Source: Candidatus Nomurabacteria bacterium
Lineage (GTDB): Bacteria > Patescibacteriota > Minisyncoccia > Phycocordibacterales > UBA9973
DNA length: 64,000 bases
Direction of reading: 5' to 3'
Assembly: GCA_943350875.1 (NCBI GenBank)
Contig: CALRAL010000001.1
Span: forward strand, 68,992-132,991
Below the pieces are notes generated by a model that was not told where the DNA came from, ran no database searches, and worked only from the letters and a program-made list of their open reading frames with translations. A program made the position numbers and the translations under genes. Below are positions 19,694 to 57,932 of the stretch, in pieces (positions within the stretch are counted from its first letter, which is position 1; each line of letters opens with the position of its first letter).

Positions 19694-20704
19694 ATGCAAA
19701 AAAAACTGCCAAAATTATTTATTTTTGTTCTAATATTACAAACTATTTTTTTTACCAGGGTTTTTGCGATTCAAACTGAGAATCCTGCCACTCCAGCTTT
19801 GATTGTAAATACTTTTGGCTATTCGGTATTGGGCACGAATTCTTTTAGGCTCGAAGGTACTTATGATGGCAATGTAAATAAAAGAGAGCTCACATATTAT
19901 TTTGAATATGAGACACAAAAGCAAGGATTGCGTGGAGATGGTCTGCATACATACATAGAGAATTCAAAAACGATTCCCATAGTTCAACATCTTTGTTCTA
20001 TAAGTGTGATATGTGACAAGGGACATATTACAGATCATTTTGAGACCACTATCAATCTACTTGATGGCAAGACTTATCGTTTTAGAGCAGTAGCGTATTT
20101 TAATGGTCACGGAGCAGAGCAAAAGTTCTACGGGCAGTGGCTGATATTGACCACTAACCAAGCATTTTTCGGTGGCAATGGCGTCTTATTAACTCCTCCC
20201 TATACTGTAAACAGCAATAACACAGCTGTGCCTTTTACAGGTATAAATTCAACAAATAATAATCCTACTTATAATCCCCTAAATACTGGTCGTTTAAATC
20301 CTACGATTGAATTTAATCCATATCTAGGCGGTACAGGAAATACAAATTCAGATACACCAGTCAAAGGTAATGGTTTGGTGCATTGTGGCAAATCTAATGT
20401 CGACAGTGCGGGTAATCCTGTCACTGCAGATACAGCAGAATGTGGCTTTAATGACATATTTGTGCTCATCAATAACATCTTACATTTTATACTTTTTATC
20501 ATAGCTATACCCATCTCTGCTATTATGTTTGCTTATGCAGGATTTCTGTATCTGACCTCGGGCGGAGGAGAGCAAGTCAGCAAAGCCAAGGGGATATTTA
20601 GCGGGGTGGCGACAGGGCTTGCTATAGCGGCGGGAGCTTGGCTCATAATACATAGCATATTATTACTTTTAGGATATCAAGGTGAATGGTTTGGCTTACA
20701 GTAA
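19694..20704 (+). CDS. Secreted protein with a C-terminal VirB2/TrbC-like two-helix pilin-type domain
   Basis: Signal peptide. The C-terminus (IPISAIMFAYAGFLYLTSGGGEQVSKAKGIFSGVATGLAIAAGAWLII) has the same two-TM plus charged-loop plan as the four small genes downstream. Confidence 0.45.
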   Translation: MQKKLPKLFIFVLILQTIFFTRVFAIQTENPATPALIVNTFGYSVLGTNSFRLEGTYDGNVNKRELTYYFEYETQKQGLRGDGLHTYIENSKTIPIVQHLCSISVICDKGHITDHFETTINLLDGKTYRFRAVAYFNGHGAEQKFYGQWLILTTNQAFFGGNGVLLTPPYTVNSNNTAVPFTGINSTNNNPTYNPLNTGRLNPTIEFNPYLGGTGNTNSDTPVKGNGLVHCGKSNVDSAGNPVTADTAECGFNDIFVLINNILHFILFIIAIPISAIMFAYAGFLYLTSGGGEQVSKAKGIFSGVATGLAIAAGAWLIIHSILLLLGYQGEWFGLQ

Positions 20705-20782
20705 ACCCCACCTGGCCTCCCCTTGTCAGGGGAGGAAAAATAGGTAGTCCCCCTGACAAGGGGGATTTAGGGGGTTAGATTT
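20705..20782. repeat. GC-rich nested-hairpin element, family C, intergenic
   Basis: ctccccttgtcaggggag ... tccccctgacaaggggga ... ttagggggttag; a second copy at 36786-36858 is ~85% identical. Confidence 0.8.
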
Positions 20783-20816
20783 TGCTAAAAATTTTAGTTA
20801 GTATTATAATTAAAGT

Positions 20817-21179
20817 ATGAATTTTATCAAAAATCTTTTCAAAAGAATAAACATAATCGCCCTCATCCTTTTTTTGCCGCTTTTTTCTGTTTCTGCAGAA
20901 TGTGCTGATAAAACAAAAGTTTGTAATCCAATAGGAGCTACTGATATAAATGGATTGATCAAAGACATCTTGATCGGAGTGATAAAGATCAGCATCCCTG
21001 TCATAGCGCTGGCTGTCATATATTCTGGCTTTCTCTTTGTGTCTGCCAGAGGTAGTACGGAAACTTTAGATAAAGCGAAAAAGACTTTGCTTTATACCCT
21101 CATCGGCTCGGCTTTACTACTAGGATCTTGGGCCATAGCGCAACTTATATCTAACACAGTATTAGCGTTACAAATATGA
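20817..21179 (+). CDS. VirB2/TrbC-like pilin-type small membrane protein 1
   Basis: 120 aa: signal peptide, Cys pair, TM1, charged loop (SARGSTETLDKAKK), TM2. Confidence 0.45.
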   Translation: MNFIKNLFKRINIIALILFLPLFSVSAECADKTKVCNPIGATDINGLIKDILIGVIKISIPVIALAVIYSGFLFVSARGSTETLDKAKKTLLYTLIGSALLLGSWAIAQLISNTVLALQI

Positions 21180-23394: not shown

Positions 23395-23416
23395 AATCCA
23401 ATATAAAAGTCAAGTG

Positions 23417-23498
23417 TGCCGTGGGAGGGACTCGAACCCTCAAGTCTTGCGACACTAGTTCCTAAGACTAGCGCGTGTACCAGTTTCGCCACCACGGC
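23417..23498 (-). tRNA. tRNA-Leu (anticodon TAG), long variable arm, no encoded CCA
   Basis: Reverse complement GCCGTGGTGGCGAAACTGGTA...CTAGTCTTAGGAACTAG...GGTTCGAGTCCCTCCCACGGCA; acceptor GCCGTGG/CCACGGC. Confidence 0.8.
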
Positions 23499-23599
23499 AT
23501 ATTTTTTTTGTGGTCAGGAATAGTTTTTTACTAAAAACTTCCCCGACCAAGGCTCGTGCCGTCGCACTCCGCCTCGCAAAAAGTACTTATGTACTTTTG

Positions 23600-23672
23600 T
23601 GCGCCCTGAAGGGATCGAACCTTCGACCTTATCCTTAAGAGGGATCTGCTCTACCAGCTGAGCTAAGGGCGC
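23600..23672 (-). tRNA. tRNA-Lys (anticodon CTT)
   Basis: Reverse complement GCGCCCTTAGCTCAGCTGGTAGAGCAGATCCCTCTTAAGGATAAGGTCGAAGGTTCGATCCCTTCAGGGCGCA. Confidence 0.8.
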
Positions 23673-23740
23673 ATGCTATTCAATTTATCATAAAAATTAA
23701 AATTTTGAAAGTTTTATAAAAAATGTTAGATTATAGGTTA

Positions 23741-23815
23741 TGGCCTGGTAGCCAAGTAGTAAGGCATTCCTCTGCAAAAGGAATATACGTGGGTGCGATT
23801 CCCACCCAGGCCTCC
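23741..23815 (+). tRNA. tRNA-Cys (anticodon GCA), encoded CCA
   Basis: GGCCTGGTAGCCAAGTAGTAAGGCATTCCTCTGCAAAAGGAATATACGTGGGTGCGATTCCCACCCAGGCCTCCA. Confidence 0.8.
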
Positions 23816-23830
23816 AGGTAGTAAATAATT

Positions 23831-23912
23831 GCCCGGATGGCGGAACTGGTATACGCGCACGACTTAAAATCGTGTCTCGCAAGGGATGTGGGTTCGATTC
23901 CCACTCCGGGCA
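23831..23912 (+). tRNA. tRNA-Leu (anticodon TAA), long variable arm
   Basis: GCCCGGATGGCGGAACTGGTA...CACGACTTAAAATCGTG...GGTTCGATTCCCACTCCGGGCA. Confidence 0.8.
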
Positions 23913-23917
23913 CAAAT

Positions 23918-30992: not shown

Positions 30993-31079
30993 GCGTCGGT
31001 GGCGGAGTGGTCAATCGCAACAGACTGTAAATCTGTCGCCCTATGGGCTACGAAGGTTCGAATCCTTCCCGGCGCACCA
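30993..31079 (+). tRNA. tRNA-Tyr (anticodon GTA), long variable arm, encoded CCA
   Basis: GCGTCGGTGGCGGAGTGGTCAATCGCAACAGACTGTAAATCTGTCGCCCTATGGGCTACGAAGGTTCGAATCCTTCCCGGCGCACCA. Confidence 0.8.
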
Positions 31080-35756: not shown

Positions 35757-36785
35757 ATGTCAACAATATCATTTAAACCAAAACAAGTAACTAAAAAAAT
35801 AACGTCTCATCTGCAGGATCGCTCACGCGATGTGATCATGAGCCGTTTTGGGCTTAATGCTGATTCAGAGAAAAAAACTCTCGAAGATATCGGTAAGAAA
35901 TACAGCATCACTAGAGAGCGTGTACGTCAGATAGAGGAAGCAGCTCTGAATTCTATAAAGAAGTCCGAAGCTTATAAGTTTGAACAAATTGCTTTTAATG
36001 AATTAAAGCAATTTATAAATTCTCTTGGTTCTATTATTGCTGAACATGAATTACTACCAAACATTTCAAAAGATAAAAATACTCAGAACCATGTTCATTT
36101 CCATTTAGTATTGGGGGACTCTTTCAAAAGACATCACGAAGATGAACATTTTCATACTCGTTGGAGTGTAGATGATGAAATGGCAGAAAAAGTGCATGAA
36201 TCATTGAAGAAACTTTATGCATCTTTGAAAGATGAAGACCTTGTTCCTGAAACTGAAATGATAAAGAAATTCTTTGATCAAATGAAAGATGTTTCTGAGC
36301 AGTTTAAAAATGAAGAGATAGCTCGAAGGTGGCTCTCTATGTCGAAGACTATCTCCAAGAATCCTCTTGGAGAATGGGGTAAGGCAAGCTCTCCAAATAT
36401 AAATACTCGTGGAGTTAAAGACTATGCTTTCTTGGTAATGAGGAAACACGGTTCACCTATGCATTTCCGAGAAGTAGCGGATGCCATTTCCAAAACTTTT
36501 GGTAAGAAAACTCATTATGCTACTTGCCATAACGAGCTCATAAAAGATCCTCGTTTTGTGTTGGTTGGTAGGGGGCTTTATGCATTAGCAGAATGGGGCT
36601 ATAAAACCGGTATCGCTCGTGAAGTCATCCGTGATATTTTAAAGCGCGAAGGACCGCTTTCCAAAGAAGATGTAATAGAAAAAGTGATGAAAGAAAGATA
36701 TTTCAAGAAGAACACTATTTTGGTAAACCTTGTAAATCCTAAATTCTTCAAAAAGAACAAAAACGGACTTTATACTACTATTTAA
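35757..36785 (+). CDS. Protein with N-terminal sigma-70 region-4-like HTH; the remainder is uncharacterised
   Basis: LEDIGKKYSITRERVRQIEEAALNSIK. Confidence 0.45.
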   Translation: MSTISFKPKQVTKKITSHLQDRSRDVIMSRFGLNADSEKKTLEDIGKKYSITRERVRQIEEAALNSIKKSEAYKFEQIAFNELKQFINSLGSIIAEHELLPNISKDKNTQNHVHFHLVLGDSFKRHHEDEHFHTRWSVDDEMAEKVHESLKKLYASLKDEDLVPETEMIKKFFDQMKDVSEQFKNEEIARRWLSMSKTISKNPLGEWGKASSPNINTRGVKDYAFLVMRKHGSPMHFREVADAISKTFGKKTHYATCHNELIKDPRFVLVGRGLYALAEWGYKTGIAREVIRDILKREGPLSKEDVIEKVMKERYFKKNTILVNLVNPKFFKKNKNGLYTTI

Positions 36786-36858
36786 TAACCCCTCCAAACC
36801 TCCCCTTGTCAGGGGAGACAAAAAAGTCCCCCTGATAAGGGGGATTAGGGGGTTGGAG
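36786..36858. repeat. GC-rich nested-hairpin element, family C, second copy
   Basis: cctccccttgtcaggggag...gtccccctgataaggggga...ttagggggttggag. Confidence 0.8.
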
Positions 36859-36887
36859 TTTTGTATTTTTTGTATTAAAATGTAAGT

Positions 36888-38249
36888 ATGGGTAAAATTG
36901 TGGAGCATATTGAGAATGCTATAAAAGACTATTGGTTGTGGCTTTTTATCATTTTTCCTCTTGGATATTTTGTTTACCAATATAATCTAGAAAAAGATGT
37001 TTTATCTGTATTGGGAGTTTTCTTATTAGGATATATTACTTGGAAGCTTTGGGTGCATTATGTACAACAGAGTTTTATTGCTGGGATTGATTGGGTTTTA
37101 CTCGAAGTTGTGCCTCCGAGGGATGTTTTGCGTTCTCCAAAGGCTATGGAGCTATTTATAACAAATGCCCTTTACCACTGGAGTAACAAAGGAGGGTTGG
37201 AAGAATATTGGCAAGGAGCAGTATGGTTTTGGTTTTCTCTTGAAATAGCTTCTATTGAAGGGCAGGTGCATTTTTATATTCGCACTCCGACAAGATTACG
37301 AAGTTTGATTGAAACTCAAATGTATGCGCAATATCCACAAGCGCAAGTGAAAGTAGCAGAGGATTATACACTTGCTGTGGATGAGATAAGCCCAAAGAGT
37401 GCTTGGATGGGTTGGGGGTGTGAATTTGTATTAGAAAAACATGAGGCTTATCCCATCAAGACGTATGTTGATTATGGACTTGATAAAGATCCAAAAGAAG
37501 AAGTAAAAGTTGATCCTATTTCTCCGGTGATAGAATTTTTCGGTTCTATTAGTAAAGGAGAGCAAGCATGGTTACAGATTATTATTACACCTTCCAAAAA
37601 AGAATATCATACTCATGGGACTATGTTTGGGCATCATGATTGGGTGAAAGAAGCGCAAAATAAATTAGAAAAAATTTTATTACCTTATTCATCTACTCGT
37701 GAATGGGCAGATCAGAAAGGGAGATTTGGAACAGAAGTTCGTGTGCCAGGACCACTTGATGGAGTTGTAAAAGCTATTAGTTCAAAAATTTCTAAAATAG
37801 GTTTTGATACTGGGATTAGAGTATATTATGTCGCCAAAAAAGAAACTTGGAGTATGAACAACAGGCGTAATATCCGTCTGATTTTTAGACAGTATGCTAA
37901 TCCGCAACTAAATAGTCTTTCTCGTACCAATAGTACTCAAGGAGATGCATACAGTGGATGGTTCCCAGCTTCTCCAAAGACAGTGATGCGTTTGGCAGAT
38001 AGGATGCTCACAGAATACAAAGAACGAGCATTTTTCCATCATCCATTAAGGCAACAACTTTTTAATAAAAATAGAGTCAAATGGCCTTTTTCTGCTTTGT
38101 TTCTAGCTTATTTTCACCCACATACATTTGTATTGAATGTAGAAGAATTAGCGACGTTATGGCATTTCCCTGGCCAGATCTTGAAAGTTCCTACATTAGA
38201 ACGTATCGAATCAAAAGAAGCTTCTCCTCCTACGAATTTGCCAACATAG
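36888..38249 (+). CDS. Hypothetical membrane protein (two N-terminal TM helices)
   Basis: ORF with coding-like composition; no family recognised. Confidence 0.45.
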   Translation: MGKIVEHIENAIKDYWLWLFIIFPLGYFVYQYNLEKDVLSVLGVFLLGYITWKLWVHYVQQSFIAGIDWVLLEVVPPRDVLRSPKAMELFITNALYHWSNKGGLEEYWQGAVWFWFSLEIASIEGQVHFYIRTPTRLRSLIETQMYAQYPQAQVKVAEDYTLAVDEISPKSAWMGWGCEFVLEKHEAYPIKTYVDYGLDKDPKEEVKVDPISPVIEFFGSISKGEQAWLQIIITPSKKEYHTHGTMFGHHDWVKEAQNKLEKILLPYSSTREWADQKGRFGTEVRVPGPLDGVVKAISSKISKIGFDTGIRVYYVAKKETWSMNNRRNIRLIFRQYANPQLNSLSRTNSTQGDAYSGWFPASPKTVMRLADRMLTEYKERAFFHHPLRQQLFNKNRVKWPFSALFLAYFHPHTFVLNVEELATLWHFPGQILKVPTLERIESKEASPPTNLPT

Positions 38250-55333: not shown

Positions 55334-55870
55334 TTAATTTTTTATCGCTTCTAAAAAAGCGAGTCTAGTTTCTTCGTCTAATTTATCTGTAACTATTATC
55401 ATAAGTTCTGTAGTGAACCCCAAATCTTTTTTAATATTTATAAATAGATTTTCGTAAGGGTAAGGGGAGATCCAAGCAGAATTCTTTAAACATACAAAGC
55501 CAGCTTTTTTTAATAAATAACGAAGTGATTCACGTTCACTTTTTCTACTCTCTGGAATATCCAAAAGTATAATTCTCCAGAATCCGTCCCAGACAGTGTT
55601 CACTAGAGTAGTGTCATCTTCTAATTTCAAAGTATTTATTTTCTTTTTTCCTAGAGTTGTGAGGCGGGCATAGTTATTTTGCCCGGAATATGAGTTTTCC
55701 ACAAGTCCTGCCTCCCGGAGACTTTTTAAGGAGCGGGTAATAGCGTATCTAGCCCCCTCCTTGTTGAGGAGGGGGTTGGGGGTGGTGATTAGTTTTTCTT
55801 GCAATTCTGGCACAGAAACAGCTGTCTTTTCACCTAGTATTTTCAATATCTTTTTGGAATAGTTGCTCAT
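55334..55870 (-). CDS. PaaX-like winged-helix regulator (paralog of 2977-3522) carrying an in-frame GC hairpin insert
   Basis: WDGFWRIILLDIPESRKSERESLRYLLKKAGFVCLKNSAWISPYPY. Confidence 0.55.
   Translation of the reverse strand: MSNYSKKILKILGEKTAVSVPELQEKLITTPNPLLNKEGARYAITRSLKSLREAGLVENSYSGQNNYARLTTLGKKKINTLKLEDDTTLVNTVWDGFWRIILLDIPESRKSERESLRYLLKKAGFVCLKNSAWISPYPYENLFINIKKDLGFTTELMIIVTDKLDEETRLAFLEAIKN
55751..55786. repeat. Family C-like GC-rich hairpin inside the regulator CDS. It encodes TTPNPLLNKEG.
   Basis: CCCCCTCC-TTGTTGA-GGAGGGGG perfect hairpin followed by ttgggggtggtg. Confidence 0.7.
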
Positions 55871-55882
55871 TTGATTTGCTTG

Positions 55883-55937
55883 ACCCTATCGCTCGCGAGC
55901 GATAGGGTTGACATACTTACATCCTATCATATATACT
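55883..55937 (+). promoter_or_regulatory. dnaK promoter with a perfect 26-bp palindrome overlapping the -35 box
   Basis: ACCCTATCGCTCGCGAGCGATAGGGT then TTGACA-17-TATATA. Confidence 0.5.
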
Positions 55938-56042: not shown

Positions 56043-57932
56043 ATGAAAATAATAGGTATAGATTTGGGTACAACAAATTCAGCTGTCGCTATCATAGAAG
56101 GAGGACAGCCAAAGATTATTGAGAATATAGAAGGGAACCGCACGACTCCTTCGGTTGTGGCTATCGCGAAAAATGGGGATAGATTAGTAGGGCTCCTTGC
56201 AAAAAGGCAAGCTGTGACGAATCCAGAAAATACTGTATATGGTATCAAGCGTTTTATGGGTCATAATTTTGATGATCCCGAAGTACAGAAAGATTTAAAG
56301 AATGCATCTTTCAAAGTTCAAAAATCAACTAATGGCGGAGTGGAAGTAAAAATAGGAGATAAGTGGATGCGTCCAGAAGAAATATCTGCGATGATTTTAG
56401 CGAAAATAAAAGCGGACGTAGAAGTTAAGACGGGAGAGAAGATCACTGAAGCAGTCATCACTGTGCCAGCGTATTTCAATGATGCTCAGAGAAAGGCTAC
56501 AAAAGACGCAGGACAAATAGCAGGACTCGATGTGAAGCGTATTATCAATGAGCCGACGGCTGCAGCACTTGCTTATGGTTTTAATAAAAAGAAAAATGAA
56601 AAGATAGTGGTGTATGACTTTGGAGGAGGCACATTTGACGTATCCGTGCTTGAAATAGGGGATGATGTTATAGAAGTAAAGTCCACAGATGGGGACAGTC
56701 ACCTCGGAGGTCGTGATATCGATCACAAGATCATAAATTGGATTGCGGAAGAATTCAAAAAGACTTCAGGAGTAGATGTACGTGGAGATAAACTTGCTCT
56801 TCAACGTCTTGATGAATCTGCAGAAAAAGCAAAAATAGAGCTTTCTACTGCCGTGGAAACTGAAATAAATATTCCATTTATTACTTCCACTCCACAAGGT
56901 CCTCAACACTTACTTTTGAAAATGACTCGAGCTCAACTTGAATCTCTTACTGATGAATATGTTTCTCGTTCCATAGAGATAACAAAGCGCGCGATGAGTG
57001 CTTCCGGTTTTAAAATGGAAGAAATGAATGAAATAATCATGGTTGGAGGTCAGACTAGAATGCCAAAGATCGTAGAAGAAGTGAAAAAGCTTTTTGGCAA
57101 GACTCCAAACCTTTCTATCAATCCCGATGAAGTCGTAGCTCTCGGTGCTGCGGTGCAAGCGGGAGTATTACAAGGAGATGTGCGCGACGTGCTTCTTCTT
57201 GATGTCATACCTCTTTCACTGGGGATAGAGACATTAGGAGGAGTGGCGACAAAGTTAGTTGAAAGAAATACAACTATTCCTTCTTCAAAATCCCAAGTAT
57301 TCTCAACTGCGGCTGACAATCAAACTTTGGTAGAAATACATATCGTCCAAGGTGAACGTCCTATGGCGTCTGACAACAAATCTCTCGGTAGATTTATTTT
57401 GGATGGAGTGCCACCTGCTCCTCGCGGTATTCCGCAAGTGGAAGTTTCTTTTGATGTGGATGCAAATGGTATCTTGAATGTGACTGCAAAGGATAAAGCT
57501 TCTGGTAAGACTCAATCTATTAAAATAGAGGCAAGTTCAGGATTAAAAGATGAGGATATTAAAAAGATGCAAGCAGATGCAGAAATACATGCTGAAGAAG
57601 ATAAAAAGAAAAGAGAAAATGTCGATATAAAAAACACTGCGGAGATGATCATGTACACAGCAGAAAAAGCTTTGAAAGATAATGATGCAAAAATTCCGGA
57701 AGATTTGAAGAAGACTGTAAATGATAAAATAACTGCTCTACGTGGTTTAAAAGATGGTTCAGACATAGAGGCTATTAAAAAGGCCACCGAAGAATTGTCT
57801 TCTGAAATGTCAAAAATCGGTGAAGCTATGGCAAAAGCTGGTGCTACTCCAGATGAAGGACCAGCTACTCCTCCTGAAGAACAACCAACTGAAGTCCGTG
57901 ATGCTGATTCCAAAGAAGAAGACAAGAAATAA
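56043..57932 (+). CDS. dnaK: Molecular chaperone DnaK (Hsp70)
   Basis: [36 protein letters not shown]... Confidence 0.95.

Follow-up and report, generated by a model that had tools for sequence, protein, structure and literature searches.

Two inverted GC-rich repeats in a Nomurabacteria genome belong to a BoxC/PIT/TMECO-class family with a candidate DUF559 nuclease partner

What are the two GC-rich elements that stand directly behind stop codons in a genome of low GC content, and how did they come to be there? We address this question in a window of 64,000 nucleotides from Candidatus Nomurabacteria bacterium (contig CALRAL010000001.1, positions 68,992 to 132,991), which has a GC content of 35%. 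The original prediction placed two copies of a nested-hairpin element, here called Family C, at 20705-20782 and 36786-36858, each immediately after a stop codon. Reading of the sequence finds both GC-rich copies directly after the stop codons as described; their boundaries had to be redrawn, as the element proper extends from 20704 to 20776 and from 36787 to 36854. The copies and their neighbours are the following.

19694..20704, plus strand: gene 5' of copy 1, encoding 336 aa that end in a T4SS-pilin-like domain (ORF list, Pfam PF18895)
20704-20776, no strand assigned: copy 1, an inverted doublet of two different arms (sequence read and covariance model)
20704-20735: left arm of copy 1, AA-CCCCACC-TGG-CCTCCCC-TTGTCA-GGGGAGG
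20736-20747: spacer of copy 1
20748-20776: right arm of copy 1, TCCCCC-TGACAA-GGGGGA-TTTA-GGGGG-TT
20782-20810: promoter-like site TTGCTA-17-TATAAT, abutting the right end of copy 1
20817..21179, plus strand: gene 3' of copy 1, a TrbC/VirB2-like pilin
35757..36785, plus strand: gene 5' of copy 2, Sigma70_r4 plus HARE-HTH, 342 aa
36787-36854, no strand assigned: copy 2, an inverted doublet (sequence read and covariance model)
36787-36818: left arm of copy 2, AA-CCCCTCC-AAA-CCTCCCC-TTGTCA-GGGGAGA
36819-36826: spacer of copy 2
36827-36854: right arm of copy 2, TCCCCC-TGATAA-GGGGGA-TTA-GGGGG-TT
36888..38249, plus strand: gene 3' of copy 2, DUF8128 family

The first A of copy 1 is also the last base of the upstream gene's stop codon, the arm of copy 2 begins 1 nt past the stop codon, and both copies end 30-40 nt ahead of the next start codon. 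Including the flanks they align at 82% column identity, slightly below the ~85% first given, and the trailing (A/G)GA(G/T)TTTTG, which had been counted as an outer part of the element, belongs to the flank and is not conserved across Family C. The 14-mer CCCCTTGTCAGGGG or its reverse complement matches the window four times with at most 2 mismatches, once in each arm; shuffled windows contain 0.07 matches on average, and none of 100 shuffles reaches 4. A covariance model built from 86 Family C copies (model R1) gives copy 1 a score of 72 bits on the minus strand and 71 on the plus strand (E about 1e-24), and copy 2 scores of 65 and 60 bits on the two strands (E about 1e-22); nothing else in the window rises above noise with this model. 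When the whole window is scanned at the Rfam gathering thresholds only 5 tRNAs are returned, and an E-value scan of the element against Rfam gives only sub-threshold, miRNA-like chance matches. Four tRNA genes (Leu, Lys, Cys, Leu) lie on both strands at 23416-23913 and a separate tRNA-Tyr at 30993-31079. The cumulative GC skew of the window runs upward over most of its length, with two short reversals. T4SS pilins and paralogous PaaX_M regulators are encoded in the window, and orthologues of its proteins bear the labels Nomurabacteria, Paceibacterota or Patescibacteria, from which a CPR origin follows.

The arms of Family C obey a simple grammar. Each is about 32 nt long and reads AA-P-(3 nt)-reverse(P)-TTGTCA-complement(P), where P is a C-run of 6-8 nt with one T (observed: CCCCTCC, CCCCCTC, CCCCCCT, CCCCCTT, CCCCTCT, CCCCCT and CCCCTCCC); written as a single strand, a Family C arm is CCTCCCCTGACAAGGGGAGGCTGGGAGGGGTT. 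In 169 of the 187 arms in standard register among the matches listed, the third block mirrors the stem exactly (shuffles: mean 68, maximum 89), a relation that is carried by a handful of arm types that are mutual copies and that therefore represents a small number of independent covariation events. With all registers taken together, 222 of 252 arms among the matches listed fit the rule; five distinct block sequences are fully consistent with it, and the 6- and 8-nt registers give more. Watson-Crick pairing cannot produce a mirror repeat. One strand of the arm could instead form a GC hairpin with the third block lying in its groove, and the predicted triads on the G-rich strand would be G·G-C and A/T·A-T. 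A T·A-T triad is permitted in the purine motif, and neutral pH disfavours pyrimidine triplexes rich in C+·G-C. Three of the four window arms follow the mirror rule exactly, the right arm of copy 1 doing so with the blocks CCCCCT / TCCCCC / GGGGGA. The fourth, the left arm of copy 1, is a T·A-T variant: its third block is CCCCACC, with A for T, which is GGTGGGG on the G-rich strand and would thus place a T·A-T triad there. The original prediction had recognised the hairpins and overlooked this mirror, triplex-type third block.

Structure is conserved among the copies at the level of the single arm. Local arm hairpins are 96-97% paired, with compensatory CG<->UA changes, whereas the hairpin that would join arm to arm shows worse covariation than all 500 shuffles and the outer stem is merely 77% paired. 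Among the matches listed, 91 doublets are heterotypic versus 6 homotypic. Given that local pairing is strong, arm-arm covariation poor and pairing of arms heterotypic, the unit is the arm, and the Family C element (~70 nt) is an inverted heterotypic doublet of such arms. The nested hairpin with an outer stem that was originally drawn is thus replaced by two independent arms; a long single hairpin or a three-way junction as the functional fold was rejected on the same arm-arm covariation and outer stem. Spacers adopt the composition of the host, and the arms remain unchanged across hosts.

This architecture recalls the BoxC/PIT/TMECO repeats, which Hoyne et al. reportedly treated in 2000 as repeats of E. 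coli and other Proteobacteria. Known since the 1990s, these sequences give triplexes in vitro and are markers of unstable loci; they are described as an "intrastrand triplex motif" of the form CCCTCNCCC-N3-6-GGGNGAGGG-N3-GGGNGAGGG (Holder et al. 2015, PMC4666352, following Hoyne and Maher), and 3610 copies were counted in 262 proteobacterial genomes (PMC4666352). According to the same study TMECO forms a stable purine-motif triplex in vitro, footprinting in vivo saw no protection, the repeats have neither strand bias nor promoter or terminator activity, all five inverted pairs of E. coli join a type A to a type B, and no transposase or integrase lies nearby, with "no activity that provides mobility" (PMC4666352). 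Like them, Family C has a C-rich stem, a loop of 3-6 nt, a G-rich stem, a 3-nt loop and a second G-rich block; its second loop can likewise be 3 nt, TTA or CCG occurring in both; and its third block takes A or T opposite an A-T pair. Both kinds of repeat occur in many highly conserved copies and in heterotypic inverted pairs, without strand bias and without a transposase nearby. Family C differs from the TMECO consensus in its 7-nt blocks, such as CCTCCCC, and in its TTGTCA/TGACAA loops. It also reaches well outside the Proteobacteria, including CPR genomes of 35% GC, and often lies in frame within genes, whereas TMECO was reported to be always intergenic (PMC4666352). The DUF559 partner that we propose below is unreported for BoxC. 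By its sequence, then, Family C is of the same class as BoxC/PIT/TMECO and a different family.

Copies are found far beyond this window. An exact-pattern scan with one genome per species detects at least 119 loci with the whole ~70-nt architecture in several phyla, the taxon labels being MAG-derived and open to mis-binning for some. Within the Nitrosomonadales the hosts comprise Gallionella, Sideroxydans, Sulfuricella and further members, with many loci in each MAG; within the Desulfuromonadales, Geobacter and others, among them the isolate Geomobilimonas luticola; elsewhere, Nitrospina, Nitrospirales, Zixibacteria, Thiothrix and one Rickettsiales MAG; and, within the CPR, Nomurabacteria, Minisyncoccia, Saccharibacteria and Peribacteria. 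Scanning of 2.9 million viral contigs returned 7 stretches in 6 contigs, with no DUF559 gene in those stretches, and carriage by phages was set aside. Intergenic copies among the matches listed occur in every gene orientation with no strand bias. About 48 of about 130 copies listed overlap long ORFs, and at least 27 are read through in frame within them. The proposal that coding copies are tolerated insertions is borne out by these, 13 of which (12 ORFs) lie in host genes verified by Pfam: AcrB, MetH (in an interdomain linker), Mfd (two MAGs), SucA, MetRS, DNA methylases and MutL (in the linker, four MAGs). The peptides resemble NPSQPPLVRGG...SPPDKGGLRGV; such insertions can survive in frame since the element is open in most of its reading frames and yields peptides rich in Pro, Gly and Ser. 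No paper containing the core sequence string was found in the literature. The "multicopy sequences" of Geobacter are other families: the in-gene family of G. metallireducens consists of GGACCGG repeats and that of G. bemidjiensis of GGGGACTGGC...GCCTGTCCCC.

Have these copies moved? Copy 2 lies in a conserved gene order (BipA, HARE-HTH, DUF8128, YceG) that is shared with three related genomes, and at the orthologous loci (L129, L130 and L131) it is absent, the flanking genes and the downstream GTATTAAAATRTAAG..ATG being kept and the proteins 84-87% identical to that of the window. Nearly all of 120 listed HARE-HTH homologues are 342 aa long, with few of 340 or 343; this uniformity indicates that the insertion of copy 2 left the protein unaltered. 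In all four genomes GTATTAAAAT(A/G)TAAG precedes the DUF8128 ATG by a few nt (36868-36890 in the window), and it may be a -10-like box near the start codon, giving a leaderless or very short-leader transcript. An unusual arm variant recurs in another Nomurabacteria MAG at a non-orthologous site; the copy at L060, considered as an orthologue of copy 1, showed no orthology. Direct repeats of 2 to 5 nt at the flanks occur at chance level (3, 2, 1 and 0 of 112), no conserved target motif was found at the flanks, and the AAC..GTT length modulo 3 yields no clean class when coding copies are compared with the others. Family C copies are thus dispersed without target duplication, and they persist where they are harmless, just past stops or in frame in linkers and loops. 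The description of the elements as REP-like holds for Family C insofar as its copies are numerous, have spread widely and include one that orthologous sites lack.

Similar tolerance is known from the Rickettsia palindromic elements (RPE), which like Family C occur both intergenically and in frame in unrelated housekeeping genes as tolerated peptides. Compared by description, RPE are about 100-150 bp long, AT-richer and limited to Rickettsia, and have no triplex grammar or associated nuclease described, whereas the hosts of Family C, apart from the one Rickettsiales MAG, are mostly not Rickettsia.

A question remains, which enzyme could move such a repeat? DUF559 proteins form a large family with a solved structure, for which we know of no activity, substrate or role in mobility. 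Solitary arms lead to a small DUF559 gene between arms at four unrelated loci (L060, L106, L103 and L013); it encodes a Vsr-like PD-(D/E)xK nuclease, and its assignment to DUF559 is supported by Pfam (2.6e-33) and by PDB 3hrl (1.3e-27). The candidate partner has its home in the Vsr/DUF559/DUF2726 clade of PD-(D/E)xK enzymes (Pfam DUF559; PDB 3hrl), the members of which include a nicking mismatch endonuclease and an EDxHD-type intron homing endonuclease (PMC3424549). In 80 metagenomic DUF559 loci picked by protein pattern only, Family C cores occur at 13, always within 200 nt of the gene; they stand beside 11 of the 14 closest homologues versus 2 of the 66 others (Fisher p = 2.5e-9). Hairpins of the form CCCC-N4-8-GGGG number 2.5 per kb at DUF559 gene ends versus 0.098 per kb elsewhere, a 25-fold difference. 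Arms flank DUF559 in 6 of 6 CPR loci; each of the four CPR homologues that were chosen by similarity alone has them on both sides, with arms 5' of the gene and a doublet that overlaps its stop codon. Every nuclease subfamily has loop sequences of its own: distant DUF559 subfamilies keep the grammar with loops such as TTAAGAA, TTAATAA, TTGATAAA, TTGGCAA and others, and their outer C-run length tracks stem length. In E. coli K-12 MG1655 a strict TMECO lies 167 nt from the 3' end of ycjD, annotated as DUF559, a proximity expected by chance at about 0.002 (23 TMECO in 4.64 Mb). Viewed from the repeats, a DUF559 gene lies within 8 kb of 5 of the at least 119 element loci. The 779 flanking ORFs contain no transposase cluster, Y1_Tnp is absent from the top families of the 150 nearest small flanking ORFs, and no other candidate enzyme or transposase family is enriched near the repeats. 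In titles and abstracts of the literature mentioning DUF559 we found no link to repeats.

Several DUF559 loci have features of their own. At L218, L220 and L060 the TAA stop of the DUF559 gene doubles as the 3-nt spacer in the arm next to it (TAC AAC CCC TCC TAA, then CCTCCCC...), and at proteobacterial loci the DUF559 ORF continues in frame through the upstream doublet. Six tandem 66-nt repeats, each with one triplex-type arm (CCCCCTTAAGAAGGGGGG-CTA-GGGGGG-ATC), lie directly upstream of the DUF559 gene at L155 (948-1300). In the E. coli K-12 locus (L216, NC_000913.3; 5762-5828 and 5322-5470) a perfect palindrome with a 16-bp stem, CACCTCATTCTGACAA...TTGTCAGAATGAGGTG, is situated between sapF and ycjD and has TGACAA/TTGTCA words as in Family C loops, and a partial duplicate of the ycjD 3' end is found between ycjD and BoxC. 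On a Saccharibacteria contig (L106, 4880-5230) about 330 nt of GC-rich, ORF-free and apparently structured sequence, which could be an RNA gene, lies 3' of dnaE between a solitary arm and a doublet.

We propose that the two window elements are probably non-autonomous copies of a small mobile repeat of the BoxC/PIT/TMECO class, whose spread is linked to DUF559. The Family C element would be the cognate substrate of a small, Vsr-like PD-(D/E)xK endonuclease of the DUF559 family, the gene of which is itself placed between such arms. The nuclease would recognise the arm in its folded state, the loop determining specificity, and nick or cut it there; copying, homing or gene conversion could then carry arms into new sites, by a logic like that of REPINs and RAYT with another class of enzyme. 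Since DUF559 genes are absent from the 64-kb window, the enzyme would have to act on its two copies in trans, unless they are relics. The sole common loop variant, present in about a third of doublets, changes TTGTCA to TTATCA, equivalent to TGACAA to TGATAA, and amounts to C replaced by T at a single place in the loop (position 3 or 4); with a partner related to Vsr, which acts on T:G mismatches, it could be meaningful, or it could be mere deamination. The repeat-DUF559 link is drawn from gene neighbourhood only, and from it we infer recognition, nicking and copying. More tentatively, DUF559 and G/C-rich intrastrand-triplex repeats may form a widespread partnership, from ycjD/BoxC in E. coli to the CPR, in which the nuclease reads a hairpin plus third strand and drives its spread, including in-frame insertion into essential genes; this could well be so, and we stop short of calling it probable.

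Adjacency could equally reflect a nuclease gene homing into repeats, or repeats accumulating beside the gene. The main rival is accordingly that DUF559 is a selfish homing-type gene that merely lands in the repeats, or that the gene is merely a hot spot where repeats collect; in both cases the repeats would spread otherwise, through host recombination, replication template switching or some transposase. That the arms lie outside the gene in varying configurations ([L][L R]-gene-[L R], [L R]-gene, [R]-gene-[L]) fits this well, as do the nesting of the repeats in other repeats and at the centre of TIR-MITEs and the presence of a group I intron homing endonuclease in the Vsr/DUF559 clade (PMC3424549). 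The co-variation of loop sequence with nuclease subfamily speaks against mere landing and argues for specific recognition either way, and no other enzyme is enriched near the repeats that could spread them; we regard this rival as unlikely. The repeats might instead be of the REPIN type, with a Y1/HUH transposase (RAYT or IS200/IS605 TnpA) mobilising them in single-stranded form and the mirror block serving as guide or cleavage-site partner. REP/REPIN sequences share with Family C the short GC hairpin units, the inverted doublet as mobile form and the lack of target duplication, and REPIN-RAYT systems likewise combine non-coding copies with a small nuclease gene flanked by repeats, each subfamily having its own. 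The third block is moreover the parallel complement of a stem strand, which resembles the pairing of guide and cleavage site in IS608. Unlike REPs, Family C has no conserved GTAG or CGTC tag (the 86-copy alignment ends in AA/AAC, with GTAG in few variants), and about a third of its copies lie within ORFs, outside the extragenic sites to which REPs are limited. Its flanked gene encodes a PD-(D/E)xK Vsr-like DUF559 protein, not a Y1 transposase, a family missing among the flanking ORFs as noted above, and its sequence is common to several phyla, whereas REPIN-RAYT is described as lineage-specific and vertically inherited. A Y1/HUH mechanism is thus very unlikely.

A structure selected by the host and not mobile, whether a terminator, an mRNA 3' stabiliser or a nucleoid-protein site, would account for the start of both window copies at or 1 nt past a stop codon and for their very stable folds (-42 to -44 kcal/mol, z-scores -3 to -4.4). 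The terminator function originally proposed finds no footing here: on the coding strand neither window copy has a terminator-like site, no T-run adjoins a stem, the loci show no preferred orientation with respect to transcription, and many copies sit within genes. Copy 2 is missing from orthologous loci at which the expression signals are conserved, no Rfam family matches, and PIT/BoxC itself showed neither promoter nor terminator activity (PMC4666352), all of which makes host selection highly improbable. Hardly credible is the remaining reading, in which the element would be a conventional TIR-MITE belonging to an IS family or else the attC site of an integron. It draws on the Gallionellaceae, where the core, as in Sideroxydans, is at the centre of TIR-bearing repeats with TAA/TTA flanks, and on the ends AAC...GTT, which resemble attC R boxes (copy 1 ends in GTTAGAT). 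The core element, however, shows no target duplication, and the same core is found in two unrelated TIR-MITEs, which indicates nesting. As for attC, where only AAC...GTT is shared, copies are solitary, without arrays or an integrase family nearby, and the neighbours of the window copies are housekeeping genes, none of them cassette-like.

The longer repeats themselves deserve description. At ten Gallionellaceae loci (L003, L004, L016, L019, L021, L045, L079, L090, L112 and L115) a Family C doublet occupies the exact centre of a longer repeat, and likewise at Sideroxydans-like loci L074, L104 and L107. Two unrelated longer repeats are involved, one with ends ACCCAGATTGTCCATTAGG...CCTAATGGACAATCTGGGT and TAA/TTA flanks, the other with ends TATTGATCCGGCCA..., which suggests insertion into palindrome centres or capture by TIR-MITEs.

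The kind of repeat described here is already known, being of the BoxC/PIT class with REPIN- and RPE-like behaviour. New, as it appears, are Family C itself and its cross-phylum reach into CPR genomes, its frequent in-frame insertion into core genes, and the neighbourhood link with DUF559, which is strong and replicated and extends to E. coli BoxC. That link may explain the spread of both Family C and the E. coli BoxC repeats; if true, DUF559 gains a function and the 30-year-old BoxC/PIT repeats gain a mechanism of mobility. Given that it recurs across metagenomes, CPR genomes and E. coli ycjD, both questions are directly testable. A single non-coding element of ~70 nt keeps the same sequence in genomes of 35% to 60% GC from several phyla and writes Pro/Gly-rich peptides into essential proteins, which is relevant to MAG annotation, to alignments of CPR protein families and to selfish DNA in small genomes.

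A third hairpin of the window, at 55753-55775 inside a PaaX-like regulator gene, had been grouped with the two copies as a related element. It is real and in frame on the minus strand, and its continuation into TT-GGGGGTGG, which completes the unit, had been missed.

55334..55870, minus strand: PaaX_M-domain regulator gene (Pfam) that hosts the unit
55753..55787, minus strand: single triplex-motif unit of a sister family, in frame, encoding TTPNPLLNKEG
55753-55760, read on the plus strand: CCCCCTCC
55761-55767, read on the plus strand: loop TTGTTGA
55768-55775, read on the plus strand: GGAGGGGG, followed by TT
55778-55785, read on the plus strand: GGGGGTGG

The sequence of this unit is unique in the window, and with the doublet covariance model the site scores 11 bits (E 0.16), which indicates that the hairpin is not a copy of the doublet family. 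It forms a complete triplex unit of the purine type and belongs to a sister family with a different loop. Orthologues establish a genuine in-frame insertion or deletion: the site is a length-hypervariable loop after a "PEL" motif, the closest orthologue (P0003, 85-90% identity) lacks about 10 residues there, and in P0005, P0004 and P0113 a 37-nt segment, AATCACCACCCCCAACCCCCTCCTCAACAAGGAGGGG, is nearly invariant in DNA while the flanking codons have diverged. The paralogue at 2977, from which the segment was thought to be missing, is 27% identical and has no length difference at this place. Some orthologues, P0004 (at L134), P0008 and P0030, carry a second in-frame GC hairpin beside the first, CTCCTCCTTTTCAAGGAGGAG..., with the peptide SSPPFQGGVPEGRGG, which a short insert in the MetRS of L033 (ISPLTGGEE) resembles; as the second hairpin is a different one, the site would be a hot spot for different hairpin families. 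Upstream of the same regulator, 13 nt from its start codon and within the divergent stretch that separates it from the gene at 56043, lies a perfect 26-bp palindrome, ACCCTATCGCTCGCGAGCGATAGGGT (55883-55908), which is likely an operator of the PaaX-like protein.
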